From a virus (lineage: Duplodnaviria; Heunggongvirae; Uroviricota; Caudoviricetes): 64,000 nt of DNA. Position 1 is the stretch's first letter. Each line of letters starts with the position of its first letter. Location: positions 67,521 to 131,520 of IMG/VR virus record IMGVR_UViG_3300035517_000267; one strand, 5' to 3'. The translations under genes were made by a program, and so were the position numbers. Shown here one piece after another: positions 290 through 48,461 of this stretch. The notes under the pieces were generated by a model. That model was not told the DNA's origin. It was given only the letters and a program-made list of their open reading frames with translations, and did no database searches.

Positions 290-577
290 TTATTCCTCCT
301 CCGTGAAAGCCCAGGTTTCTCCATAATCTGAGAAACGATAAATGTTAATATCTGGACCAGGAGATCCCCAAACGAAGAAAAAACAATTTTCATTTGCGCC
401 TAATTTAAGTTTTTCTTTGCTAATTTCGACTACTTTATCGAGCTTTTTAACTCCATTACCATAGTTGAGGTATCTTTGACCAAACATAAAGCCAAAGATA
501 GACCTCGTTGCATTAGAGTAATATTTCTCAAGTATTTGTTGTTTAGTCATCTTCACTTTCTCCTTTTGCCCTTTCAC
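290..577 (-). CDS. hypothetical protein
   Basis: ORF of 95 aa; its stop overlaps the start of the downstream kinase gene. Confidence 0.4.
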   Translation of the reverse strand: MKGQKEKVKMTKQQILEKYYSNATRSIFGFMFGQRYLNYGNGVKKLDKVVEISKEKLKLGANENCFFFVWGSPGPDINIYRFSDYGETWAFTEEE

Positions 578-2543
578 CTCTTAATACAAGGCTTCCATCT
601 TCTTTAATTTCATCTATCTTATAAAGTTGATGTTTTACAAGTGAATTTGCGTACTTCTTCGGCACAAATTGATCGCCACGTCTATATCCTTGAATAACTA
701 GCAAAGATCCACGGTTAAACCAACTGCGTTCTTCTATCGACTTGGTTCCATCTGCATTTATTTTACTAATTTGCTTGTCGAACAAACTAAAATGCTCTTT
801 GTTAAATCTAATAGTGACTACTCCATCTGTTGTTAATAAATAGATTGTACTTTTAGCTTTATCTTTTGCAAGACAAGTTCCGCAAATTCTGCTAAGCTTA
901 TAAAGAGGAATTCTTGCGTCACCTTTCTTCAATGTATAAGAAACAACAGGTGTCTCAGGAAGTTCTCCAAAATCGACTATTTGATATTGTTCCTTATTAA
1001 TGTGCGCAAGCTCATGCTCATGGTAGTAGAAACACAAGCTTTCCATCTCCCATGAAGAGAGGTTTCCACCCGCATATTTTTCCCAGGCTTCCATAAATAT
1101 CTCTGTGTTAAGAGCGTCAAGCAATTCATCTTTATTTTCTTTAATCCAATCTCTAAACACATCCATATAAGATTGATATGCTTTATCCCACACTTTAGCA
1201 TTTAAGATATTTGAATCAAAAGAATGATAATCTATTTCATTCAAGAAATCAATTGCTCTATCATCAAGTGTATAAGTGTCTGCGGATGTTTTACAAACCG
1301 ATTTTAAATACCTATTAAATTCATAAATTCTTTTTGTAAGAATATAAGGTTCTTCATCGGGGATTAAATTATATTTAATTAAAGTAGGAATATTTTGAAG
1401 TGTAAGTCTACTTTTTTTATCACAAGTCAACCACAAATATTCTACCATTGCACCTTGTCTATTAGATTCTATATTGTCAAAAGCTCCACCCTTTAAGAGA
1501 GCAACTATGGCTTGCTTGTTAGGATTTACTTTTTCAAGAAATTCTTTAATTGAATTATAAGGACGATTTGCGAATATTCTTTCAATCAATTCCTCTCCTA
1601 CATTTGTTATGCCCCTTAAACCAAAATAAATTTGATTGTTTTCTTCATCAGGAGAAAAAGTATAGCTTGATTGATTTATGTCGGGAGGAACTATTTTAAC
1701 ACCACTACTAATCATTTTACCAAGAGCTTGTGCAAGCTTTGCATAATCATTTGAACCACCGCTATCAGTAATCAAACAGGCACAATTCCAATAAATGATC
1801 GGAAAGTGGTAGCAAAGATTCATCTCCTGTAACGCAATGAGTGAGTAAGCTAGACAATGCGACCTATTAAAGCTATATCCGCGTTGTACCTTGAGTAATA
1901 CATCCCATACATAATGTGCTAGTTTTTCTGAGCAGCCCTTTTTGCGTACATTTTCAAAGAATTCTTTCTCACATTCCTCAAACAAGCTGCCTTGCTTCTT
2001 TGCTATTCCCTTGCGGCACTTATCAGCAAACGTCAAGGAGTTTCCACCAAGTCGAGGTTCTTGGACAAGCAACATCAAGCCTTCTTGGGATTCTACGATA
2101 CCATCTGTAGCTGCATCACTGCTTGCGAGCCATTTCATTTCATCAGATGTAAGACCATAAAGAGCCATTTCTTTATACCATTCACTAATATCACTTCTAT
2201 ATCTAGCCCATGTTTGAAGTGGCTGTTCTCCGCCCTTTTCCGGAGCCATTAGCCGGATAACCGAATTAAGAACAGTTAGGTCATTGATATTTTGAGGATG
2301 AATTGCAGAGATGCCTTGTATACCACTTTGTTGTTCCATTTGAAATAGCGAATGGATTTGGTGGGTATTAACCATTTCCCACATTTTTGGAGCAGTTCTT
2401 TCAATATTATAAATACCGATAACCTTTTCATATGTTTCTTTAAGAGTAGGTTCTGCGGAAACCTTACCATATTGTACTAACAGATCAAGGCAATTGTGAA
2501 TTTTATCCAAGCACTCTACAGACAACAGGTCTATCTTAATCAA
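543..2543 (-). CDS. dnaE: DNA polymerase III alpha (DnaE-type), 3' exon (C-terminal part)
   Basis: GYSFNRSHCLAYSLIALQ and PPDINQSSYTFSPDEENNQIYFGLRGITNVGEELIERI match the DnaE palm/fingers and HhH motifs. The ORF-track start is a TTG; the real exon begins near 2543 after the intron. Confidence 0.8.
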   Translation of the reverse strand: MIKIDLLSVECLDKIHNCLDLLVQYGKVSAEPTLKETYEKVIGIYNIERTAPKMWEMVNTHQIHSLFQMEQQSGIQGISAIHPQNINDLTVLNSVIRLMAPEKGGEQPLQTWARYRSDISEWYKEMALYGLTSDEMKWLASSDAATDGIVESQEGLMLLVQEPRLGGNSLTFADKCRKGIAKKQGSLFEECEKEFFENVRKKGCSEKLAHYVWDVLLKVQRGYSFNRSHCLAYSLIALQEMNLCYHFPIIYWNCACLITDSGGSNDYAKLAQALGKMISSGVKIVPPDINQSSYTFSPDEENNQIYFGLRGITNVGEELIERIFANRPYNSIKEFLEKVNPNKQAIVALLKGGAFDNIESNRQGAMVEYLWLTCDKKSRLTLQNIPTLIKYNLIPDEEPYILTKRIYEFNRYLKSVCKTSADTYTLDDRAIDFLNEIDYHSFDSNILNAKVWDKAYQSYMDVFRDWIKENKDELLDALNTEIFMEAWEKYAGGNLSSWEMESLCFYYHEHELAHINKEQYQIVDFGELPETPVVSYTLKKGDARIPLYKLSRICGTCLAKDKAKSTIYLLTTDGVVTIRFNKEHFSLFDKQISKINADGTKSIEERSWFNRGSLLVIQGYRRGDQFVPKKYANSLVKHQLYKIDEIKEDGSLVLRGERAKGESEDD

Positions 2544-3840
2544 CGTGTTATCCTATGTTTCCATAGGTACTGACTATCTCTTACTCCGTGAGAAAAGAAT
2601 TTTATATCCTTTCTCACGGAGAATACCATTTCGGTTTTCAGATGCTTCGTTTCCTAAAACATCGCTGCGTACTAATAGCAGCCCTACTCCCAGTCTCACC
2701 CGGGATAGTCGATACGCACAAAAGTTAAAGTGTTACATTCTTCCATGTTTTATAGTTAATTATATCTCTAATCGTGGTAGTAGACACGGAGGGGTATAGA
2801 GTATATAATTCTTTATTTGTCATTCCTTGTTCATGTTTTTTCCGAATATATCTTACATCATCTTCTGTAAGTTTAGCTTTAGGATTTCTAGAACCAGAAG
2901 CCTTTAAAGAGCTATGCTTCTTTTTGTTTTCTTCTGTAAAGACTTCTGGCATTACAAGCTTATAACTACGACCATTATATACATTCCAAAAACTCATTTC
3001 ATTGGTATATCTATTCTTATAGTCCTTATAGACATCTTTCCAATATTCTCCATTGGCGTAGCGCTTCCTTAAATCTATAACCTCTTCATATGTTAATACA
3101 TTACCTTTATTACAAAACTGATTAGAAAATTCAGTATTATAAGGATAACATTCTACCGAGGGAGTTAGATTTGTATAAGTTTGATGGTTGTAGCACTTCC
3201 TAAAAGCTTCATAACTTATCTTATCGCTAAATTCTTCATATAAAAGATAAATTGGAATGTTTCTATGGTCTTTAATATATTGCGCTTCTTCTTGCGTCAA
3301 ACAAGCATTTGCATTATCACTTCCATATTTAGCTTTATCACCCATAGTATACATCCCACCCTTAGCTACATTATAGCCATTAGGGACTAAACTATTTTTT
3401 TCTTGAATTAACTTTATTTCCAGCTCAGAAGCTTCTTCAACGCTAATTCCTTCATAAAGAACTTCAAAGGTAAAATTCTCTTTACCATACTTTTGAATTG
3501 CGTTCGTAATAGCTTGACGTCTCTTTGGATCTCCTATTTTAGAACACTCATTCTGCCAACGCCTCTTGTAATTGTTGGTTATTCCAATATAAATTTTCCC
3601 ATTTATATTATTGGTTATTTGATATACATACATACTTCATTACTCCTTTACAGTTCATATTAGATGTACCCCTACATTAAATATGAAAGTCGGAATAAAC
3701 ACTTTAAACTTTTTTGGTCCGGGATTACCATGAGATAAAAATCTTTTAGGCTTCCCCGGTGCTATATAGGTATTATTTACTTACGAGTTGCCTCAGCCTA
3801 TATAACATTGCTAGTAAGCAATTAGGTATTTAGTAGCCTG
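2544..3840 (-). mobile_element. group I intron interrupting dnaE, carrying a GIY-YIG homing endonuclease gene
   Basis: The DnaE reading frame is broken: exon 1 ends ...DCSQQLV and exon 2 resumes ...IKIDLLSV, aligning to DnaE LLKFDFLGL. The intervening about 1.3 kb holds a free-standing GIY-YIG ORF, and the 3' intron segment (2548-2730) contains GACUA-type core sequence shared with the dnaB intron. Confidence 0.7.
2725..3633 (-). CDS. GIY-YIG homing endonuclease (I-TevI-like, with a C-terminal NUMOD/IENR-type DNA-binding region)
   Basis: MYVYQITNNINGKIYIGITNNYKRRWQNE and NGYNVAKGG form the GIY-YIG motifs. The C-terminal region is related to the second intron endonuclease (MPEVFTE... KTWK). 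Confidence 0.85.
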   Translation of the reverse strand: MYVYQITNNINGKIYIGITNNYKRRWQNECSKIGDPKRRQAITNAIQKYGKENFTFEVLYEGISVEEASELEIKLIQEKNSLVPNGYNVAKGGMYTMGDKAKYGSDNANACLTQEEAQYIKDHRNIPIYLLYEEFSDKISYEAFRKCYNHQTYTNLTPSVECYPYNTEFSNQFCNKGNVLTYEEVIDLRKRYANGEYWKDVYKDYKNRYTNEMSFWNVYNGRSYKLVMPEVFTEENKKKHSSLKASGSRNPKAKLTEDDVRYIRKKHEQGMTNKELYTLYPSVSTTTIRDIINYKTWKNVTL

Positions 3841-5675
3841 ACTAATTGTTGACTACAATCTTCGCTATCATGCAGATCAAACTGTGTTACAATGTCTCCA
3901 TTAGGCACTTTCATTAAGGCGGTTGATTTTGTAAAAGGTTCATCTACAAAAATAACTCCACCAGCGTGCTCTCCGACGCGACATACCAAGCCTTCTATCT
4001 TCTGTGCGACTTCCCAAACTTCAGGATAGTCATTAGTCATGGCATTAACAAAAGTGGGAATTGGTTTAAATCCTTTTTCTTCGTCTCCATAGAAACATTC
4101 TTTAAGTGTGCGGGTTTGCCCTCTATCAGCAGGAATAAGAGACGCAAGATAAAGACCTACATCACTATCTATGCCAAGTCCTCTCGCAGCCGTTTGGATT
4201 GCTGACTTACTTTTTTCAGTTCCAAAAGTAACTACATTAGCCACTCTATCTTGTCCATAAAAATCACGAAGATGTTGGAGCACTTGAGCACGCCTTCCTC
4301 CCTCTATATCGCTATCTATGTCGAGCACAGAAACACGCTCGGGATTCAAAAATCTCCATGAATAGCATTTTGTCTCTTCCCATAATGGATTTATCTGAAT
4401 AATATCGAGCACATATAGCAAGGCAAACCCAACTCCTGAACCACGACCAGGTCCAACTAGAGTTCCTGCATTCCAGCATTCTTCAATCGTCTTTTGAAGA
4501 TTTAAAAAATAAGCACTCCAATGTGTTTTATTTACTTCTGAACTTTTCCAAGTAATTTCAAGATTGCTATTAAGTTCGTCATAAGTTTCTTGATTTTGCA
4601 GTCGAGAGTCTTTCTTTAATTTATCTACAACTGCCCTTGCGAGAATACTATCTCCATCAAAGCTCGATTGAGCGAACGTCCGCAAATAAGGAATTTTTTC
4701 ATACCATTCTTCTTCAATTGTTTTTGTCTCAGGAATTTTCCAGATAAGAGAAGGAATTTTTAGAGGCTTCAAAAGGCTATAATCTTCGCAAGCATCTTTA
4801 ATTTTTCTTATATTCTCATAAGCTGTATTTAGCTGTATCTCTGTAAAATAATCAAAATAAAGCTCTATTTCAGTTGTATCCATTATATAAGTTGTAGCAT
4901 AAAAAGAATCAACTTCTCTTTCACCATCCTGAGAATTAAGAAAAGCTTTGTGAATCGGAGCATCTTCTCTTCGTGTATAGTGAGTATCTGTAGTTATGAT
5001 ATAAGGAATGTTGAGCGTAGAAGAAAGATTAAGAAGGAACTTATTAACTTCTATTTGTTCATCATTTCTGGAAGGCTGCATTTCAAAATAGAAATTACCT
5101 TCTCCAAACAAATGTACCATACTAGTACACCAGTTAATAATTTGTTCATAAACTGTTTCATCATCTGTTATAAGATATTCCAAGATATGTTGCGGAAGCC
5201 AGCCTCCTAGACACGCACTACTTCCTATTACGTTTCCTCTATCTTGTCCTATAATCTCTATAAGATCTTGGTAATAAGTGGGAACCCTCGTCATTCCTCT
5301 TGAAGAATAACTGCGTTCCCATGCTCTTGTTGAAAGTTCTCTTATCTGCTCATGTCCTCTAGCATTTTTTGCTAAAAGAATAAAGTGCCAATACTTATCT
5401 TGTCCAGCAATATAAGTTTCAGGAGATAACCCATCTCGGCAAAGATAAATTTCATTGCCTCTAATAACCTTAAAGTCTGGATGATCTTTCTTTACTTTGC
5501 TATAATACTTTTCAATTTTGACGGCATTACTTATAGTTTCATGCTCGGTAAACGCAATAACTTCATGCCCAAGCTCAATAGCTCGATCTATAGAAGATTC
5601 TATGGTTGAAATGGCGTCGCGTAAGCGCAAATTACTATAATCCGTGTGCCCATGCAATGAACCGGGATAACCCAA
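3822..5675 (-). CDS. dnaE: DNA polymerase III alpha (DnaE-type), 5' exon (PHP domain and N-terminal palm)
   Basis: LHGHTDYS... FTEHE is the PHP domain; NFYFEMQ and GFALLYVLDIIQINPL are DnaE-like. The frame closes at 3822 inside the intron. Confidence 0.8.
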   Translation of the reverse strand: MGYPGSLHGHTDYSNLRLRDAISTIESSIDRAIELGHEVIAFTEHETISNAVKIEKYYSKVKKDHPDFKVIRGNEIYLCRDGLSPETYIAGQDKYWHFILLAKNARGHEQIRELSTRAWERSYSSRGMTRVPTYYQDLIEIIGQDRGNVIGSSACLGGWLPQHILEYLITDDETVYEQIINWCTSMVHLFGEGNFYFEMQPSRNDEQIEVNKFLLNLSSTLNIPYIITTDTHYTRREDAPIHKAFLNSQDGEREVDSFYATTYIMDTTEIELYFDYFTEIQLNTAYENIRKIKDACEDYSLLKPLKIPSLIWKIPETKTIEEEWYEKIPYLRTFAQSSFDGDSILARAVVDKLKKDSRLQNQETYDELNSNLEITWKSSEVNKTHWSAYFLNLQKTIEECWNAGTLVGPGRGSGVGFALLYVLDIIQINPLWEETKCYSWRFLNPERVSVLDIDSDIEGGRRAQVLQHLRDFYGQDRVANVVTFGTEKSKSAIQTAARGLGIDSDVGLYLASLIPADRGQTRTLKECFYGDEEKGFKPIPTFVNAMTNDYPEVWEVAQKIEGLVCRVGEHAGGVIFVDEPFTKSTALMKVPNGDIVTQFDLHDSEDCSQQLVRLLNT

Positions 5676-12031: not shown

Positions 12032-12720
12032 GGAGCATCACCATCATCTACAATTACGCGTGTATCCTCTATAGGTACCATTTCTAGTCGCCAGTTAGTA
12101 CAAAATTGCGGTTCTATTCTACAAGTTCCCAAATTTGCGGAACAAAAAAGATAAACTCCCTTATATGCCCCACGACGATTCTTATATATAGATAGTTTGA
12201 TTTTAGGCACTTTAAGATTGGGATTTGCGGCAAGAATTGGAGCGAGTTTTTCAAGGTCTTGAGGAGTAACTTCCAAGAGTATCATCCCCGTGTCAACTCT
12301 GTCTGCGATGCTTTTCGCTCCTCTCAAGAGATTTTGGTCTGGAGTTTCGCTATCTTTATAGTCGGTATTAAGCTGTGTACCCGTCAAAATAAAAACTCCA
12401 TATTGATTAGCTATATCTTTTAACCTAGCAGACAACATAAAAAGTATATTATCTTCTCGAAGCTTGACTCCGCCAGAACGCTTGGATATTTCTTCGAGTA
12501 TCTTGAGTGATGTGTGTATATAATCGAACATATTCCTCCTATGTTTCCATAGGTACTGACTATCTCTTACTTGACAAAATGCCAAGGATACCTTTTCGAG
12601 CCACGTACCAATAGTAGCCCTACTCCGCCGATCCGCGGATAGTCGATACAGGTTAAATTTGGACTTGTTTCCAAGTTTTTCCTCGACAAATATCTCCAAT
12701 TGTAGATTTGCAAATACCAT
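12022..12720 (-). CDS. dnaB: replicative DNA helicase DnaB-like, 3' exon
   Basis: MFDYIHTSLKILEEISKRSGG... ILTGTQLN matches the DnaB IDYLQL...ALSQLNR region. The true exon begins near 12530; the upstream in-frame part of the ORF is intron sequence. Confidence 0.7.
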   Translation of the reverse strand: MVFANLQLEIFVEEKLGNKSKFNLYRLSADRRSRATIGTWLEKVSLAFCQVRDSQYLWKHRRNMFDYIHTSLKILEEISKRSGGVKLREDNILFMLSARLKDIANQYGVFILTGTQLNTDYKDSETPDQNLLRGAKSIADRVDTGMILLEVTPQDLEKLAPILAANPNLKVPKIKLSIYKNRRGAYKGVYLFCSANLGTCRIEPQFCTNWRLEMVPIEDTRVIVDDGDAPWD

Positions 12721-13526
12721 ATTTGTCGATTAATTGTTGGTATGTGAATCCATTTTTTCTATCTATTTTAATTGCACGAACAATTTCTTCATTTAATTTG
12801 GTATGTCTATTTTTCTCAGTAAATACTTCTGGCATAATTGTTTTATATCTAGAGCCAGTCCAAATATTTAGAAAAGAATTATAGTGCATTTTTCCTTCAT
12901 ATAATTCTTTGTAAATCTTACTTGGACTTTCATGCCTAGCATAAGCTTTTCTAAGAAAAATAACCTCATCTTCCGATAATGAAGCGTGAGCTTTCATAAG
13001 CTTTTCTTTTTGTTCCTCTTTCATTGGTTTAGAAGCATTTAATCCACCAGACTCAATATTATATCCATTTGGAATCTAAGTTTTTAAATTAGCAATATAA
13101 TATATTTCTAGTCCATTTAATTCTTCTATTGTTTCGGCTTCTGCTAAAATTTCATATTTAAAATTTTCATAGCCATATTTTCGGAAAGCTCTATGAAGCG
13201 GAGAATTATACTCAGGGTCTTTTTCATTAAAAGCCGTACTTTTATGAGCATTATATCTTTGTCTTGGGTTAATTGTTTGACCCACATATTTTTTCCCATT
13301 AATTAAATTAGTATAACAATAAATGATTCCCATAAAGTAATCATCCTTTCTTTAAAATTATTTCCATTAATATATGAAAATAATCAAAGGTGTTTTGATT
13401 ACTTTTGTCCAAAATTTTTTCCCACGGGATTACCATGCCATTTGGTTTAGGTTTCCCCGTTAGCTAGAATCAAAACTATTCTAACCCCAGTGGTAACTGG
13501 AAAGGTATTACACAGCCCTCGGTTTT
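12541..13526 (-). mobile_element. group I intron in dnaB, carrying a GIY-YIG homing endonuclease
   Basis: DnaB N-terminal and C-terminal halves are separated by about 1 kb. The 3' intron segment at 12538-12660 shares near-identical core blocks with the dnaE intron: cctatgtttccataggtactgactatctcttact, agccctactcc and ggatagtcgatac. Confidence 0.7.
12653..13333 (-). CDS. GIY-YIG homing endonuclease, intron-encoded, with one in-frame TAG
   Basis: The 13076-13333 ORF (GIIYCYTNLINGKKYVGQT) and the 12653-13024 ORF (IPNGYNIESGG... KTWKQV) are in one frame joined by a TAG at 13076-13078. Together they give the complete GIY-YIG plus NUMOD-like architecture seen in the first endonuclease. Confidence 0.65.
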
Positions 13527-14567
13527 TCACTGAGCAATGTAGCGAACATCATGCTCTCTGATGTTCTTCTTTATAATATTTTCTACGTCTTGGAGAGAAA
13601 AGTCGGGCAACGTCTCAACCCAAAGGGGGCTACGAGACAAGATTTCCGCAGCTTTTTTAATTCTTTCTTCTTCTCCTTCAAGATATTGACCATTTAAGAT
13701 ATGTTCTTCATTTACATTTGATAAAAATGCAAGCATCATTGTTTGAATCTCAGTTAAATCTTGTTCAACAGCAATAAAAAGAGTAGGCTGTGCGCTTCCA
13801 TTTCTTATCCAACCAAACTGGTCATGATAAATCTCATTACACGCAAAATTGCAAGCATCGGCAATCATTGAACGTGTTTTGCCAACTCCAGTTGCCGCTG
13901 ACCTAAGATACATTTTGCCAAGTCTTGCTCCGCGAGTTACTGTGTTAATGAGGGGTCCATACATCGGAATACCAATCTCAGGATTCTTCTTTAAATCTTC
14001 AATAAGTCCCAAAATACCATCTCCCGCCTGGTAGCCATCACCTAAGTCATCATTAACATATTTTGTTTTTATTTCATCTATTCTATTATCAATATCTTGG
14101 GCAATAGATGTAATAGAAGTTTTATCAAGCCAATCTTCTTGCTCTTGTTTTTTGTTTGTATTGATAATATTTTCTGGGTCATAAAGATAACTTACATCAA
14201 GCCCATAGTTTGCATAAGCTCTTAGCAAGCTAAATTTTTTCATGCGCATATAATAATAATTAAAGGTTTCTTTCTTAGAAACTTGAGAAGCTTCTGCAAG
14301 ATATTCAACGCCTTTATTCTTATTAAAAATCGCTTCATATTTAGGTCTATTGGCGAGATAATCTATAATAGACTCTATGTTTACCTTACTCCCAGTAAGA
14401 TGTATATTGTAAATTGCTCCAAAAGTTATTTTATGAAAATTTTCAGTAAAATCATCTTCATGTATAACATATTTATCTGTATCATCAAGTATAGAAGAAT
14501 CGTTAAAAACACATCCAATAACCTGCGTTATGGCGGCAAGGTCTATATAACTATTAGGATTAACCAC
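13527..14567 (-). CDS. dnaB: replicative DNA helicase DnaB-like, 5' exon
   Basis: DnaB N-terminal domain followed by Walker A GVGKT. Confidence 0.7.
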   Translation of the reverse strand: MVNPNSYIDLAAITQVIGCVFNDSSILDDTDKYVIHEDDFTENFHKITFGAIYNIHLTGSKVNIESIIDYLANRPKYEAIFNKNKGVEYLAEASQVSKKETFNYYYMRMKKFSLLRAYANYGLDVSYLYDPENIINTNKKQEQEDWLDKTSITSIAQDIDNRIDEIKTKYVNDDLGDGYQAGDGILGLIEDLKKNPEIGIPMYGPLINTVTRGARLGKMYLRSAATGVGKTRSMIADACNFACNEIYHDQFGWIRNGSAQPTLFIAVEQDLTEIQTMMLAFLSNVNEEHILNGQYLEGEEERIKKAAEILSRSPLWVETLPDFSLQDVENIIKKNIREHDVRYIAQ

Positions 14568-15084
14568 TTACATCTTCCTCCTTGTCCAAAAAATCAAAAA
14601 GATTTTTAAAACGCCTTACTGGTTTTCTTCCACTTGCTTTAATGTGTATTTCTCGTGCGGGAAGCACATAATCTTGAAGCTCAATATTTTCATTTTTCTG
14701 CTGTGCTTCCCATATACCATGCCAGTAGGCATATGCTTCCTCGTACACATATGGCGTTATACCAATTCCACCATTCGACTTCTCAAGGTCATTTCCGCAC
14801 ACATCATAAAAATATTTTAGAGTTTTTAAAATTCCTGAATAAGTATATTTTTTATCTTTCACATAGGTATTTATCTGTCTATCAATTTTTTCTGAGATAC
14901 AATTAATTCTAAATAAGTCCTTAATATAATTTTCTAGTTCTTTCTTATCTTTATCCTCTTGGGTTTCTAGAGATTCCGCACAAGAAGCATGAGCATAACG
15001 ATTACTTCTTGGCTTTACATAGGGTTCTTCGTCAGGATTAAACATCTCATTACAATAAAGACATTTAACGAGCCTTTTTGCCAC
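14560..15084 (-). CDS. hypothetical zinc-ribbon protein
   Basis: N-terminal CLYCNEMF...HASCAES zinc ribbon. Confidence 0.4.
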   Translation of the reverse strand: MAKRLVKCLYCNEMFNPDEEPYVKPRSNRYAHASCAESLETQEDKDKKELENYIKDLFRINCISEKIDRQINTYVKDKKYTYSGILKTLKYFYDVCGNDLEKSNGGIGITPYVYEEAYAYWHGIWEAQQKNENIELQDYVLPAREIHIKASGRKPVRRFKNLFDFLDKEEDVSG

Positions 15085-15108
15085 TACTTCTCACTCCTTC
15101 CCTAAAGT

Positions 15109-15143
15109 TTATATAAATATTATATCACATTTTAATAAAAAAA
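15109..15143 (-). promoter_or_regulatory. conserved promoter copy
   Basis: Plus strand tatataaatattatatcacattttaataaaaaaag, next to a terminator hairpin. Confidence 0.55.
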
Positions 15144-15172
15144 GCAAGAGAGGGAGATTTCTCTCCCTCTCA
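15144..15172 (-). terminator. rho-independent terminator
   Basis: agagagggagatttctctccctct hairpin. Confidence 0.55.
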
Positions 15173-15178
15173 TCTTCT

Positions 15179-15736
15179 TTAACCCTTTATAAGTTCTTCC
15201 AAGTCTGTAGCAATCAAGTCCATAAGCTCAGCTTGCTCGGGGGTACAATCGCTAACTTTTCGCCCCTTACCAAGATAACGCTCAATAATTGAGGTAATCT
15301 TAGCTGCGTTAGACTGATTTGCACTCATAAGATCTCCAATAAGATTCTGAATCTTTTCAGCAAGAGCCTGATAATCATATTCTTTTGGAGCTGCAAACTC
15401 AGCTCTTTCTGTAGTAATATACTTTCCATTTGTTGCTTTTGCTTCTGCATCAATTGCGGCATTAAGAGCATTAACAAGTGCATTATAAGAAAAATCTATT
15501 TCAGGAGCGATATATTTAAATCTACAGCCACAACGAACACTATTATCCTCAGACCTAAGTGTAAGAACAGGCTTATAGGTTCCATCAGGCATAGCTTTTG
15601 GATGAGCATAGGCTATTATATCACTCATATTTTCTATTATCGAAAGCGCAGAACTCTGCATAGAAGAACCAATCTGTTGATATTCAGTGCCATTCTGAGG
15701 TTTAATTGTTTTTTCTTTATCGTGACTTATAAACAC
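15179..15736 (-). CDS. probable 3' exon of an AAA_24/Sak4-like recombination ATPase
   Basis: RecA-fold continuation (DIIAYAHPK...) downstream of the P-loop ORF at 16927-17292, separated by a LAGLIDADG-containing insert. Confidence 0.4.
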   Translation of the reverse strand: MFISHDKEKTIKPQNGTEYQQIGSSMQSSALSIIENMSDIIAYAHPKAMPDGTYKPVLTLRSEDNSVRCGCRFKYIAPEIDFSYNALVNALNAAIDAEAKATNGKYITTERAEFAAPKEYDYQALAEKIQNLIGDLMSANQSNAAKITSIIERYLGKGRKVSDCTPEQAELMDLIATDLEELIKG

Positions 15737-16926
15737 AACAGCATATCCCAGCTGAGTTAAAGTCCTAAAAGTTTCCTCGAATTCCTTTTTATATTTTGCC
15801 CCAATAATGTTATCCTAAAGGCTTTTTATCCTCTAGTTCTTACGCTTACTTATTCGCGTAAGTTCAGCATAGCTTTTATCCCCAACACTTGGGGATTGTA
15901 GTCTCGTGGAGAACTATATCAATTAAAGTTTTTTATATCTATAATCTTTTGATATTTTTCTTTCTTTCTTGCCAGGAATAAAGAGTTATCGGTATATAAA
16001 TGCTTAAAGATTTCTTTAGAAGCATTTGTCGAATATTGTAAGATATATAATGTAGAAGTATTACGTTGAAAAGAGTGAACATTTACTTTTGGAATATCAT
16101 ATTCCTCATAAAAAAAGTCTACAATCCATTCAAGAATTTCTTTAGTTGCAGATGTAATCTGCCAACTCAAAGTATTATAATTATTAGAAAGAAGAGTTAT
16201 ACTCCCATCGCCATCAAAAAAACCTCTAATATAATCAATCCAATATTTTCTATCTAAGCTTAATGGTGGCTTTAGCTTAAAGGTTTTTTGTGGAATCACG
16301 CCATACTTGGCTAAATCTTTTTTATGTTGTTCGCTTGACCATTGAATTTTGCTAACTTGATAACCAGCTTGAGTAATATAATCTTTAACTTCGGACTTCA
16401 AACCAATTTCTTGACGAATCTTTTCAAGAATCTCTCTATCTACTGTACTCAAACTAAGTTTAACTACATTCCTATCTTTCTCAATGCTACCATCGGCAGC
16501 CAAAAAACCAACAAGCCAAGCCATATTATGATTTTCTTCGCTAAAATAATTCTGCTTTTCTAGCAGATTTCTGCCTTTATTCGCAGCTACAATAGCTTCA
16601 TGTCGATTTCTTAATTTATAACCATTCTTTTCTAAGACTTCTTTGAGTTGAGGCAAAGTTATTTTTGCAGCAGCCATTACTGCCGCTTGCCCTCTCCCAT
16701 TTTCAATATACTCCTTTAGAACAATTTTCTCTTGCTCTTCCGTAAATGAGTTTTTTGTATTCACACTGAACACACTCCTTAAAACTAAAACTTTAATTGT
16801 TTAATTTCTCTATGCGTTGCGCGTGTTAAAGCTTTTAGACTTTAACTTCCGCTCTGGTTAGCATTTCAGCTTTCCAGGTTTTTACTACAATTTTGATATG
16901 AATTACTTCATAAAAGACCAAGCATT
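15737..16926 (-). mobile_element. putative group I intron with a LAGLIDADG homing endonuclease inside the Sak4-like ATPase gene
   Basis: A Walker A/B N-terminal half and a C-terminal half are separated by 1.2 kb holding a double-motif LAGLIDADG ORF. The flanks contain GC-rich hairpins and an AGACUA element. Confidence 0.45.
15919..16773 (-). CDS. LAGLIDADG homing endonuclease (double-motif)
   Basis: LVGFLAADGS and IRGFFDGDGS motifs. Confidence 0.8.
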   Translation of the reverse strand: MFSVNTKNSFTEEQEKIVLKEYIENGRGQAAVMAAAKITLPQLKEVLEKNGYKLRNRHEAIVAANKGRNLLEKQNYFSEENHNMAWLVGFLAADGSIEKDRNVVKLSLSTVDREILEKIRQEIGLKSEVKDYITQAGYQVSKIQWSSEQHKKDLAKYGVIPQKTFKLKPPLSLDRKYWIDYIRGFFDGDGSITLLSNNYNTLSWQITSATKEILEWIVDFFYEEYDIPKVNVHSFQRNTSTLYILQYSTNASKEIFKHLYTDNSLFLARKKEKYQKIIDIKNFN

Positions 16927-17292
16927 TTAGCCATTATTCGACCATCCGCCGTCTCCAATGTTTTCTATCCCCAGCTGATTACAAACATATTTCTGACACA
17001 TATCAGCGGCTAGGTCTGCGGTATCAATTATAATGCTTTTATAAACTTCCTTAACCTCAGATTTCTTAAGCTCTCTAAGAACTTGCTTCATATCTCCCCA
17101 AGATGTGATATCTTGTACCATGACCCCAGGTAGTGCGTTGTAACCACGCTCGAATGCTAGTATCAAATGACCAGGCATCTGAGAACCAAAAGTCGTCTTA
17201 CCAATCTTTGCAGGTCCAAATAAAAAAGTAATATAGCCAGATAGATCGCGACTTACACTATGAGGCTGAATATTTAAAAGGTTGATAGCCAT
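16927..17292 (-). CDS. AAA_24/Sak4-like ATPase, 5' exon (Walker A and Walker B)
   Basis: GPAKIGKTT and SIIIDTAD motifs; the 121-aa ORF stops right after Walker B, which reads as truncated. Confidence 0.5.
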   Translation of the reverse strand: MAINLLNIQPHSVSRDLSGYITFLFGPAKIGKTTFGSQMPGHLILAFERGYNALPGVMVQDITSWGDMKQVLRELKKSEVKEVYKSIIIDTADLAADMCQKYVCNQLGIENIGDGGWSNNG

Positions 17293-17347
17293 TATTTTTA
17301 TTTCCTTTCCTAAAGCTAAAGGGGGAGGTTTTTCCTCCCCTTATAAA

Positions 17348-18277
17348 TTAAAACTTGTACTCGCCCTCAGTAGGCTTTGCGAAAGCCGACGGAGTAGAAT
17401 TCTTACTAGCACGATAAGTATCGCTACGCTGCTTGATTTCCGCAAGATGGATCTCTCGTGCGGCGATCATCTCAGACAGCTCAGAAGCAAGAAGTGTGCT
17501 TTCATCATCCCAAAGATAAGGCTCAGGCTGCGCCCAAGTAATAACAAATGCCTTCTGAGTATTAGTAACCTCGCGCACACTAATCTCACCCCAAGCGCTT
17601 GCTTCCTCTATCTTCTTCTTTACAACCCTAGAGATTTCCTGCCCCTTCACCTTAGTAAAGACGGGCTGCTTCTGCGTAGCCTCAAGTCCCTCAAAATAAT
17701 CAATTGCTGCCGGATTGGTAACAGTAAACTCGACAGGAAGAAGCATCTTGGGATAACCAAAAATACAGCCCTTGACTATGCCTGTATCCGGCTGATCCTC
17801 AGTCTCCTTACGAGAAAAATTAGTAATAACCATATCTGCTTCAAAAGTAGATCGACTATCAGGCTCACTAAATGTATCAATAGGATGAATAAATCCACCC
17901 TCATTGCGCTTTGTGCTTACAAGCGGTTCACCCTCAACACGATAATTGTACCACTCGTTAAGAGCAATTGCAGAATCTACTCTAAGCTTCGCAGCATTCT
18001 CCTTACCAGCGCCCATAACTGTCTTGGTGGTACCGTCAAGTATGCTCTGAAGAATTGCATAGTTACCATTTACACGAGGTGCATCATTCGGATTCTTCTG
18101 AGGATAATACTCTGCAACATAGGTATAATGAACAGTAACTATATTGGTATCATCTGTTGCAATACTAATATCACCAGAGATATAAGGAATATTCTTGGCA
18201 CTTACCTTGCTCTTAAGATTATGCTCATAGAGATAACCCTCAAGATGAACTGTGTTTATAAAATTCTTCTTACTCAT
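17348..18277 (-). CDS. possible single-stranded DNA-binding protein (T7 gp2.5-like); GC-rich gene
   Basis: Sits next to the Sak4-like ATPase; acidic C-terminal tail ending in an aromatic residue (...EGEYKF). The assignment is tentative. Confidence 0.3.
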   Translation of the reverse strand: MSKKNFINTVHLEGYLYEHNLKSKVSAKNIPYISGDISIATDDTNIVTVHYTYVAEYYPQKNPNDAPRVNGNYAILQSILDGTTKTVMGAGKENAAKLRVDSAIALNEWYNYRVEGEPLVSTKRNEGGFIHPIDTFSEPDSRSTFEADMVITNFSRKETEDQPDTGIVKGCIFGYPKMLLPVEFTVTNPAAIDYFEGLEATQKQPVFTKVKGQEISRVVKKKIEEASAWGEISVREVTNTQKAFVITWAQPEPYLWDDESTLLASELSEMIAAREIHLAEIKQRSDTYRASKNSTPSAFAKPTEGEYKF

Positions 18278-28466: not shown

Positions 28467-28781
28467 TTAAATACCTTCATCAAGATTTATGTTATCATTC
28501 TCTAGCTATTTCATTGCCATGTCATAAGTAATTCCACCTTGCGAATGATCGCTTTTTGCCATATTAAGATAAAACGAGCAAATAGTACCATAGGCACTCC
28601 AAGGTAGTCCTACTAAAGAAGTAATCCATGCTAAAGTACCAATATAACCTCGATAAACGCAGAAAAAAGCAAGTAATATTCCAGATAAAGTAACTATCCA
28701 AAGTAAAAGCCTTATATCTCGAATAATTTTCTTAGAATAATCAAGGCTTTCTATCTAATCTTTTACTTTTGCTTTTTTCAT
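28467..28781 (-). CDS. holin-like two-TM protein with in-frame TAG codons
   Basis: The ATG overlaps the amidase TGA stop (ATGA). Sequence MKKAKVKD[TAG]IESL... with two hydrophobic helices, then a second TAG 12 codons before TAA. It does not appear in the ORF track because the TAG at codon 9 splits it. Confidence 0.45.
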
Positions 28782-29533
28782 TTGCAAAACTTATCTTTAA
28801 AGCGCTGAAGAACAGTCATCATTTCTCCCCTTGTTAAAAACTTTTTGGGAGAAAGACGCCCATTCTCGTCTCCTTGTACTAAACCATTCTGCTGCGCCCA
28901 TTCCATCGCAGAAAGTTCCCAGGTGGAATCTTTTTTAGCTTGTTGTGCAAGATAAGTTTCAAGCATTTGATTAAAAGTTTCTTGCGTCATTTCTTCGTCA
29001 CCCTCTCCATTTAAACGCTTATTAACTTCCGCGGCAATTTGCCCATGGCGATTATAAAGCCAATCTCCAGGACAAGCTTTTTGCGCAAACCATCTATGAA
29101 CAGTCATGTTCTGTTTATCAACTTGTCCAATTAAACTCTTATCTCCTTGCCAAAGTAATTTTTTAATTCCATTACGTTGACAAATATCTACCAATAAATT
29201 AATCAAGCTGGCATAAGCCTCGTCTGATACTGGCCAAGGATCAGCTGCTATGCTATTAGCAACTTCAATGGTAATAGCCCTATTATCGTTGCTAGAACTA
29301 CTAGTACACCAACTTCTATTGGCTTCATCTACATATAAGGCTATTCTGCCATCGCTACCTATCCCATAATTGCTGCTTGCTTTATTTGAACTGTTGGCGA
29401 AAATAGCTCCACAACTTTCAACGGTTAGATTTCCTGCCATACAATGAATAGAAATTGTGTCAATTGTATGAGTACGCTTGCCGCTATTATTCGGAGATAA
29501 TTTGGTATAAGATACCAAAGAACTATTGCTCAA
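28778..29533 (-). CDS. endolysin: N-acetylmuramoyl-L-alanine amidase (Amidase_2/PGRP) with a C-terminal SLH-like cell-wall-binding domain
   Basis: N-terminal ISIHCMAG...GIGSDGRI amidase_2 pattern; C-terminal WELSAMEWAQQNGLVQGDENGRLSPKKFLTRGEMMTVL is SLH-like. Confidence 0.7.
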   Translation of the reverse strand: MSNSSLVSYTKLSPNNSGKRTHTIDTISIHCMAGNLTVESCGAIFANSSNKASSNYGIGSDGRIALYVDEANRSWCTSSSSNDNRAITIEVANSIAADPWPVSDEAYASLINLLVDICQRNGIKKLLWQGDKSLIGQVDKQNMTVHRWFAQKACPGDWLYNRHGQIAAEVNKRLNGEGDEEMTQETFNQMLETYLAQQAKKDSTWELSAMEWAQQNGLVQGDENGRLSPKKFLTRGEMMTVLQRFKDKFCK

Positions 29534-39258: not shown

Positions 39259-39417
39259 ATCTTACCTCCTAGGGTATGGCGGCGGGGGACGGTACTGACC
39301 CGTCTTCCAAGCTTTTAGAGAGCCTTGCATTACCTTTATGCTACCCCGCATTTTCTAATTCTATTATACAGGAAAAATTTCATAAAGTCAAAAAAAAGAG
39401 AGGGTTTATTCCCTCTC

Positions 39418-47088: not shown

Positions 47089-47269
47089 TGGTAGTCGGTA
47101 CGGGATTCGAACCCGTGACTTCAGCGTTGGAACTAAAAATAAGATTTGAACTTACATCTTTGACCACTCTTCGTCTGAATAAAATCTTATTTCAAATTCA
47201 AAAAGTCAATATTTTTCTTTAAACTATTTTAGCGAAAGGCTGATGACTTAACCTCTTGTCGAACCGACC
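47089..47269 (-). tRNA. tRNA-Glu (UUC) gene interrupted in the anticodon loop by a 106-nt tRNA-like insert (47128-47233)
   Basis: 5' half GGTCGGTTCGACAAGAGGTTAAGTCATCAGC-CTTTC, and 3' half AC-GCTGAAGTCACGGGTTCGAATCCCGTACCGACTACCA. Acceptor (7 bp), D arm, anticodon stem TCAGC/GCTGA, a 4-nt variable loop, canonical T loop TTCGAAT and CCA are all present. The predicted spliced loop CTTTCAC reads UUC. Confidence 0.55.
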
Positions 47270-47687: not shown

Positions 47688-47774
47688 TGGTGCGAGCGGC
47701 GGGACTCGAACCCGCACGTCCTTGTGGACACGAGATTTTAAGTCTCGGGTGTCTACCACTTCCACCACGCTCGC
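47688..47774 (-). tRNA. tRNA-Leu (UAA), type II
   Basis: GCGAGCGTGGTGGAAGTGGTAGACACCCGAGACTTAAAATCTCGTGTCCACAAGGACGTGCGGGTTCGAGTCCCGCCGCTCGCACCA; anticodon loop CTTAAAA; long variable arm; CCA encoded. Confidence 0.8.
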
Positions 47775-48387
47775 TTATATTTTATGAAAGACCCCTTCGG
47801 GTTGCTATCTGTTCAATCGTAGCTATATTCAGTCAATAGGGAGACAAGAGTGTGCCTAGAGGAGCTACCTCTAAACAGCTTGCCCCAGCTTAGAGCCAAG
47901 TCCCATGGGAGATTGGTTACTCCCAACTTTCACCCACCATTCACATCTTGTATCTGTTAAAACCATTAACATAAAAATTTGATGTAATCTTGGCAGACCA
48001 TTTGGGCTACTCGTACTGTGACCTTATCTTATACACCGATTTCTCGGCTTCAACTGCCAAGTTCCTTAGTGACATTCCAAGGTTTGCAAAAACTGTCACA
48101 TTTTTACCTAACTTGGATTCTTCTCCACAGGAGCGTCTATTGCGGAACCGATAAGACCATACTTTTAACTGCGATTGTGATAGTGCCTTTCTTCCTACAG
48201 AGCTAAAGTTCTTTAGCCTCAACCCAACCTCACGAATTGAGCCGATACAAGATTGCTAGGGTATCCTCTAGTACCTTGCTACTTACGGAAGAAGCCTCAG
48301 CACAATGGCGTTTGTCTACACTGAGTTCTTTCATAATATTTTGTCATTCTTATTTATGTATAGATGGAGAATAACAAAACCACCTTT

Positions 48388-48461
48388 GGCAGTCCCTACT
48401 CGTGACGATCGAGTACCCTCTGATTCAAAGTCAGATGTGCAGTCCGCTACACCAAGGGACT
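48388..48461 (-). tRNA. tRNA-Gln (UUG)
   Basis: AGTCCCTTGGTGTAGCGGACTGCACATCTGACTTTGAATCAGAGGGTACTCGATCGTCACGAGTAGGGACTGCCA. Perfect 7-bp acceptor, anticodon loop CTTTGAA, CCA encoded; the T loop ATCGTCA is non-canonical. Confidence 0.6.

Follow-up and report, generated by a model that had tools for sequence, protein, structure and literature searches.

Why are the two parts of one recombination ATPase encoded in separate open reading frames (ORFs) of a phage genome, and what is the element that lies between them? The question is raised by a 64,000-nucleotide (nt) stretch of DNA (IMGVR_UViG_3300035517_000267, positions 67,521-131,520), here called the window, in which a LAGLIDADG homing endonuclease gene stands between two ORFs that resemble the beginning and the end of a Sak4-like protein. 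The first-pass annotation had listed these three ORFs, all of which are present and lie on the minus strand, as do all features of the Sak4 gene and its intron, and had proposed that an intron splits a Sak4-like AAA_24 ATPase. This proposal is borne out by a one-piece alignment of the exons, a covarying group I fold and matching guide pairings (P1 and P10): very probably, a mobile Twort-like (IA2) group I intron is inserted inside a tryptophan codon of a phage gene for a Sak4/YorG-like recombination ATPase.

The split gene and its junction

ORF 17292..16927 (121 amino acids, aa) contains the Walker A (GPAKIGKTT) and Walker B (IIIDTAD) motifs that had been read from it at first pass, and matches positions 4-103 of the 195 in Pfam AAA_24 (E 1.3e-21). 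ORF 15736..15179 matches positions 126-186 of the same profile (E 4e-4), and the two pieces are colinear with about 22 profile positions between them. The earlier reading of the latter ORF as the RecA-fold continuation is thus correct in substance, but its start has to be moved, as exon 2 begins at 15801, 65 nt upstream of the first GTG; the frame is open upstream as far as 15814. The last base of exon 1 is also the first of an in-frame UAA that spans the 5' splice site (U|AA). When 17292..16929 is joined to 15801..15179, the resulting 987 nt are in frame and give a 328-aa product that reads ...GDGGWSNNG-W-AKYKKEFEETF... across the junction.

The insertion point lies inside the Trp codon (U|GG), and this Trp is kept in 20 of the 20 intron-less alleles. 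The predicted junction peptide GDGGWSNNGWAKYKKEFEETF matches GDGGWTNNGWAKYKKEFEETF of the closest intron-less relative (L007), the split Trp included, and the L007 DNA is identical at 38 of 42 positions across the insertion site; the best uninterrupted homologue (79% identical) reads GDGGWTNNGWAKYKKEF across the junction. Because the intron ends have no bases in common with the exon ends, the boundary cannot slide. The split, the junction and this fixed boundary therefore define the insertion as 16928..15802 (1,127 nt), and the predicted ligated mRNA junction is ...AAUGGCU|GGGCAAAA. An alternative junction (...NN|AKY) was rejected: it loses a Gly conserved in a four-sequence alignment as well as the Trp of all 20 intron-less alleles, and it lacks P1/P10 support.

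Comparison of the concatenated exons with Sak4/AAA_24 proteins, the check that had been suggested for this locus, gave a clear result. Searched by tblastn against cultured phages, the product of the two exons gives one continuous alignment, covering 98-99% of its length, with the uninterrupted Sak4-like proteins of Enterococcus phages EF1/VRE9 (38% identity, 3e-61), and the same holds for YorG of SPbeta and for Lactobacillus phage Maenad. When IMG/VR was scanned with exon 2, 21 metagenomic loci were found; none of the 21 homologues is interrupted, and each aligns as a single block with the joined protein (54-79% identity). Residues 3-317 match phrog_124, 'Sak4-like ssDNA annealing protein' (4.9e-46), and the gene order YorF-Sak4-YorH-DnaB is syntenic with yorF-yorG-yorH-yorI of SPbeta. 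In precomputed Pfam annotation of an identical Logan contig (L149), the neighbours of Sak4 are YorF and Phage_SPbeta_YorH. These matches identify the predicted joined protein as a Sak4/YorG-like AAA_24 recombination ATPase. As megablast of the region against cultured phages gave a 35-nt match only, we regard the region as lacking a close cultured relative.

Guide sequence, ribozyme core and endonuclease

The intron carries an internal guide sequence (Table 1) in which the P10 strand UGCUU directly precedes the P1 strand. U16929, at the 5' splice site, forms a U·G pair with G16919, and the last intron base is the omega G15802. We compared nine Sak4 introns at four insertion sites (five same-site copies and four copies at three other sites), and each has a contiguous P10|P1 guide that fits its own exons, a U·G pair at the site and a terminal G. 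Because the exon sequences differ between insertion sites, this pairing amounts to covariation between intron and host gene, and the exon-matched guides are the strongest single argument, at the level of sequence, that these elements are built to splice. All same-site copies have an in-frame stop codon (UAA or UGA) that spans the 5' splice site, a feature that has been linked to ribosome stalling, which allows intron folding (PMC3984707).

Comparison with relatives gives the element order P1, P2, P3, P4, P5, P6/P6a, GCA joiner, P7 5' strand, P7.1 and then either P7.2 or an ORF, followed in the 3' part by P7.1', CACGAG, P3', P8, AAAAG(C/A), P7', P9, P9.1 and the tail GAUAACAUUAUUG. The core includes long-range helices and a P3/P7 pseudoknot. 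P7 has the form A(C-bulge)GCAUA / UAUGCU, the pair across the bulge switching from A-U to G-C (10 versus 8 sequences), a pattern that fits a guanosine-binding site, where binding itself is predicted. In a MAFFT alignment of 18 related introns (A2; ORFs excised from five), 92.5% of cells form standard pairs, compared with 31-43% after a shift of the 3' partners by 1-3 columns (slid control). Compensatory changes on both sides occur in 45 of 62 pairs, and the covariation score (0.662, versus 0.194 for shuffled alignments) was reached by 0/500 shuffles. Six of the seven P3 pairs show double changes, and all four variable pairs of P7.1 (GAGAA/UUCUC) are compensatory; P8 is the lowest-scoring helix (70%), because MAFFT puts some copies one column off register. 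As an independent check, the window intron with its ORF removed was folded by minimum free energy, and P2, P4, P5, P6, P6a, P7, P8, P9 and P9.1 all reappeared (z = -5.5 versus shuffles); in the window copy all predicted pairs except the outermost of P4 are standard.

Two features that the first-pass annotation had placed around the endonuclease gene can be located in this fold. The GC-rich hairpins are real and correspond to P8, P9 and P9.1. The AGACUA segment occurs once, starting at 15904, but it belongs to the CACGAG joiner and the P3 3' strand and is not a classical P7 'R' element. For GAUAUAGUU and GAGACUA we had also considered an assignment to the classical S and R elements; comparison across the family shows the former to be the joiner after P7.2 and the latter to be CACGAG plus the P3 3' strand.

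The introns in orf142 of Staphylococcus phage Twort are IA2 introns, and a crystal structure of the ribozyme exists. The sequence that we took to be that of the Twort ribozyme matches GenBank AF132670 at 97.9%. In that record orf142 is a joined coding sequence in four pieces, annotated 'contains group 1 introns'. The window intron shares with the orf142 introns the overall architecture and a P2 with a GUAA loop (UUUAU..AGUAAU..AUAUC), and with Twort I2 in particular the GCAAC joiner before P7, a P7' followed by UGAAC, a short P9 hairpin and a 3' end of the type UAACAU(A/U)AUUG / UAACAUAAUUG. The sequence similarity, however, is modest and distant (alignment z = 4.9), and P7 is GACUAU/AUAGUC in Twort whereas it is GCAUA/UAUGC in the window intron. 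The hosts also differ, being a structural gene in Twort and Sak4 here, and I2 and I3 have no ORF, unlike the window intron with its LAGLIDADG gene at the P7.2 position. ORF-less relatives have a P7.2 hairpin in place of this ORF. Placement of P7.1/P7.2 between P7 and the P3 3' strand, and the lack of a P5 (P5abc) extension, are IA2 features, and we assign the intron on its predicted fold to the Twort-like (IA2) group I architecture. The definition of IA2 applied here is in part general knowledge of group I introns and in part that of PMC3984707.

A survey of Bastillevirinae (PMC11878797) found phage 'IA2' introns to be heterogeneous and homing-endonuclease loops often to break model matches, and the failure of Rfam to recognise the window intron fits this statement. 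Five loci with ORF-less relatives were likewise without a group I match in Rfam, as was one such relative searched alone at E<=10. Because these relatives are missed too, we read the null result as a sensitivity gap of the model that is uninformative for this family. A search with a 17-base motif from the 3' flank (P9.1), GGATAAAAAGCC-N5-GATAA, found at least 120 IMG/VR stretches (L028-L147 among them), and many of the copies are compact and ORF-less (about 250-300 nt) with the same conserved blocks. Family copies occur in many phage genes, and the position of the ORF varies, lying 5' of P2 in some and in P6, P7.2 or P9 in others. The cultured Clostridium difficile phage phiCD211 (L162, NC_029048.2 28598-29181) has a split tape-measure gene in which 82 nt (28781-28862) that match the window intron in its 3' core are followed directly by a separately annotated Intron_gpI (28891-29156), an arrangement that suggests two adjacent or nested introns, one of them missed by Rfam.

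The endonuclease is encoded by a free-standing gene within the intron. Two stretches of its ORF match Pfam LAGLIDADG_3 (E 2.5e-12), and the ORF matches the two-motif enzyme of PDB 2dch and phrog_4645 'endonuclease' (7e-45). Its motifs LVGFLAADGS and IRGFFDGDGS (patterns ..GF.A.DG.. and D.IRG..DGDGS) do not vary when the enzyme is aligned with seven homologues (34-72% identity), and the motif aspartates D91 and D186 are the same in 8 homologues. Thus a double-motif LAGLIDADG gene does lie between the exons, as had been noticed at first pass. The mechanical ORF runs to GTG 16773 (15919-16773), but the start is more probably GTG 16764, given that a Shine-Dalgarno sequence precedes it by 10 nt, that the gene predicted on the identical contig L149 (2597-3442, 281 residues) is equivalent to a GTG 16764 start, and that homologous introns have AGGAGG before the ORF with the same spacing. 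At E<=1e-20 a large protein collection contains 364 relatives of the endonuclease, several with 66-73% identity; a search against one genome per species found no relative, and for that reason we make no host assignment. A candidate target is the intron-less site of L007, GCGGATGGACTAACAATGGCT|GGGCAAAATACAAAAAGGAAT, the same junction across which 38 of 42 positions are identical to the window.

Table 1. Features of the Sak4 locus and of the other split genes in the window
Feature	Position	Strand	Remarks
Exon 1, Sak4/YorG-like AAA_24 gene	17292..16929	-	121 codons plus first base (U) of Trp codon
Group I intron (predicted)	16928..15802	-	1,127 nt; 5' splice site after U16929, omega G = 15802
Exon 2	15801..15179	-	GG finishes Trp codon, then AKYKKEFEETF...ISHDK...; stop TAA 15181-15179
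Intrinsic-terminator-like hairpin	15137..15171	-	10 base pairs (6 G-C) and T run, directly after Sak4 gene
Internal guide sequence 5'-UGCUU|GGUC-3'	16924-16916	-	GGUC with exon 1 GGCU (P1); UGCUU with exon 2 GGGCA (P10)
5' half of ribozyme core, P2 to P7.1 5' strand	16806..16912	-	
P2	16912-16907 / 16902-16897	-	GUAA loop
P3 5' strand	16890-16884	-	
P4	16878-16874 / 16857-16853	-	
P5	16871-16869 / 16862-16860	-	3-base-pair stem
P6	16852-16850 / 16823-16821	-	
P6a	16846-16840 / 16831-16825	-	
P7 5' strand	16817-16811	-	Bulged C
P7.1 5' strand	16810-16806	-	
Shine-Dalgarno AAGGAG of endonuclease ORF	16780-16775	-	10 nt before GTG 16764
Double-motif LAGLIDADG homing endonuclease gene	15919..16764	-	Free-standing, 281 aa, P7.2 position between P7.1 strands; probable start
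3' half of ribozyme core, P7.1 3' strand to omega G	15802..15913	-	
P7.1 3' strand	15913-15909	-	
CACGAG joiner	15908-15903	-	
P3 3' strand	15902-15896	-	
P8	15895-15890 / 15884-15879	-	
P7 3' strand	15871-15866	-	
P9	15862-15856 / 15845-15839	-	
P9.1	15836-15830 / 15821-15815	-	
3' tail GAUAACAUUAUUG	15814-15802	-	Ends in omega G
Split DnaB-like helicase gene	12067-14567	-	YorI residues 4-340 = 14543..13536; 342-497 = 12528..12067
Split DNA polymerase III alpha gene	543-5675	-	ORF 3822-5675, PHP and pol3_alpha 19-251/260; ORF 543-2543, finger and HHH_6

Predicted mechanism and rival readings

If the intron works as its anatomy suggests, by the established route of group I introns, the Sak4 gene and the intron would be transcribed as a single pre-mRNA, ribosomes on exon 1 would halt at the UAA spanning the 5' splice site, and the intron would fold into P1-P9.1. 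An external guanosine held in P7 would attack after U16929, which is held in P1 by its U·G pair with the guide sequence, and the freed 3'-OH of exon 1 would then attack after G15802, with exon 2 positioned by P10 on the adjacent guide bases. The ligated mRNA would encode an intact 328-aa Sak4-like protein. The LAGLIDADG enzyme, made from its own Shine-Dalgarno sequence and GTG inside the P7.2 loop, would cut the intron-less Sak4 gene of relatives present in the same infection, at the conserved sequence on both sides of the insertion point, and recombinational repair would copy the intron into the cut allele (homing).

Several points weigh against this reading. Catalysis, splicing in vivo and the activity and target of the endonuclease are what we infer from the anatomy, which is the part that the analysis shows. 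Rfam RF00028 (Intron_gpI) has no hit, either in the whole window at the gathering score or in 15000-17400 at E<=10, and the outermost P4 pair of the window copy is C·A. As regards the alignment, the ORF-deleted constructs in A2 were assembled by us, the structure was partly derived from the A2 sequences and the slid control is favoured by construction; the relatives were recruited via the P9.1 motif, and the inner P9.1 pairs are invariant by selection.

Could the gene instead be split without any splicing, a free-standing endonuclease cassette leaving two Sak4 polypeptides that reassemble or have lost their function? Gene callers give three separate ORFs here, and split phage genes beside free-standing endonucleases are known, but the sequences on either side of the ORF make up a group I core that is conserved and covaries and whose guide pairs with both exons, and the exon boundaries restore the conserved Trp codon exactly. 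Moreover, a second polypeptide starting at GTG 15736 would lose 22 conserved residues, and no obvious Shine-Dalgarno sequence is seen in the bases just upstream. We consider such an arrangement extremely unlikely. It is also very unlikely that a former group I intron has lost splicing and has left this Sak4 copy as a pseudogene. The C·A mismatch at the end of P4 would agree with decay; every other predicted pair in the window copy is standard, however, the endonuclease ORF is intact with invariant catalytic motifs, the exons are intact and without a frameshift (79% identity to an intron-less homologue), and same-site copies in four other phages retain the same features. Both of these explanations need the covarying core and the exon-matched guides to be a coincidence or a relict.

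PMC13190283 describes LAGLIDADG domains in inteins and, rarely, in group II introns, and both were considered as the identity of the insertion. They are ruled out by the sequence, which has seven in-frame stops between exon 1 and the endonuclease ORF, an ORF with its own Shine-Dalgarno sequence and start, and an exon 2 in a different frame, none of which suits an intein. There is no reverse transcriptase and no group II RNA match (Rfam, E<=10), and the RNA shows P1-P10 group I anatomy. The group I intron in Sak4 is thus the reading that we carry forward.

Sister introns, other split genes and implications

Group I introns are known in recA, nrdE/F and DNA polymerase genes of Bacillus and its phages (PMC3984707, PMC11878797). 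Like these, the window intron appears to be mobile with a homing endonuclease, lies in a highly conserved motif of a replication or recombination gene and has an in-frame stop by the 5' splice site; the hosts differ, being RecA, Nrd and Pol there and Sak4/AAA_24 here. LAGLIDADG is a less common passenger, as phage introns mostly carry GIY-YIG, HNH, PD-(D/E)xK or EDxHD enzymes (PMC3984707); one LAGLIDADG enzyme was reported among Bastillevirinae introns (PMC11878797).

Sister introns of the same ribozyme family are found in the same host gene of other SPbeta-like metagenomic phages (L004-L006, L074, L150-L161), on contigs that have been neither annotated nor described. The four endonuclease matches that were looked up (L158-L161) lie in same-site introns with endonucleases 68-73% identical to that of the window, so that at least four other phages share this site. 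In L158 and L160 the intron at residue 121/122 is alone, whereas in L159 and L161 it is joined by another intron, located in the Walker A region, whose LAGLIDADG gene is a different one. The closest relatives of the endonuclease in IMG/VR (48% identity; 47-49% for enzymes at other sites) lie at other positions of the same gene: in L004, L005 and L006 the Walker A motif is interrupted (GAP|KVGKTT), and L004 has a second insertion at VVDTV|DIA. An ORF-less copy in L074 occupies a fourth site (KTWA|DFK), after a Trp near residue 66. The non-coding flanks of the L004-L006 ORFs are plainly homologous to those of the window intron, and the ORF-less cores of the sister introns are 74-77% identical to the window core.

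There are thus four insertion sites in Sak4 (Walker A, about residue 66, Walker B and residue 121/122), of which the window phage has the last only. Two LAGLIDADG introns occur in one Sak4 gene in L004, L150, L151 and L154 (Walker A and Walker B) and in L159 and L161 (Walker A and residue 121/122). The Walker B intron of L004, L150, L151 and L154 is not present in their close relatives L005, L152, L153 and L155, a distribution consistent with mobility, and the residue 121/122 site has both interrupted and uninterrupted alleles in different phages. We tentatively raise the idea, which we think less probable than its converse, that a single intron-endonuclease lineage has returned to Sak4 time after time and has repeatedly re-targeted within the gene, possibly as a marker-exclusion weapon against the recombinase of competing SPbeta-like phages.

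Other genes in the window are also split. Together with Sak4, the genes for DNA polymerase III alpha and DnaB make three interrupted replication or recombination genes within 17 kilobases. The first-pass annotation had suggested that, were its reading correct, three such genes would carry introns, and the insertions do look right, each of the other two genes being split around a GIY-YIG ORF, but intron nature was analysed for Sak4 only. A 302-aa GIY-YIG ORF (2725-3633) lies between the halves of DNA polymerase III alpha. The DnaB insert of about 1 kilobase contains a GIY-YIG ORF (13076-13333) and a 123-aa ORF (12653-13024) that is possibly a frameshifted endonuclease, and it has none of the motifs of the Sak4-intron family. 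When three family motifs were sought elsewhere in the window, exact matches fell in the Sak4 intron only, and matches with 1-2 mismatches were no commoner than in shuffled sequence; as no exact motif occurs outside the Sak4 intron, the insertions in DnaB and DNA polymerase III alpha (DnaE) belong to other families.

The window also encodes several structured RNAs. A full-length ROOL RNA (47772-48349, minus strand; Rfam RF03087, 322 bits, E 2.5e-73) abuts a tRNA-Leu(UAA) at 47688-47774, and a tRNA-Gln(UUG) at 48387-48461 is close on the other side. A further Rfam tRNA hit (47131-47233, minus strand) has a 36-nt anticodon-loop insert (23% GC, high bias) and no ARAGORN call, and is probably spurious. 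ARAGORN also calls an amber-suppressor tRNA with a CUA anticodon (39277-39350, minus strand), labelled tRNA-Pyl and not found by Rfam at the gathering score, which could point to read-through or recoding of TAG in part of the phage genome.

We found no report of an intron in Sak4 in the full-text literature searched, where absence is not proof of absence. Sak4 would be an additional host gene, one that does not seem to have been described, for a well-known class of mobile phage introns, and the locus matches the textbook pattern of mobile introns in the most conserved motifs of phage DNA-metabolism genes. The main value of the finding is for annotation. Gene callers see Sak4 as two fragments and a "hypothetical" ORF, and Rfam misses the ribozyme and its relatives; because the gene is fragmented and the intron missed, SPbeta-like recombination modules in metagenomes would be mis-scored as having no intact Sak4. 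A covariance model built from A2 would close this detection gap. The apparent occurrence of one intron-endonuclease lineage at four sites of one gene is a modest curiosity, and this four-site distribution offers a small natural model in which to study target change by LAGLIDADG enzymes.

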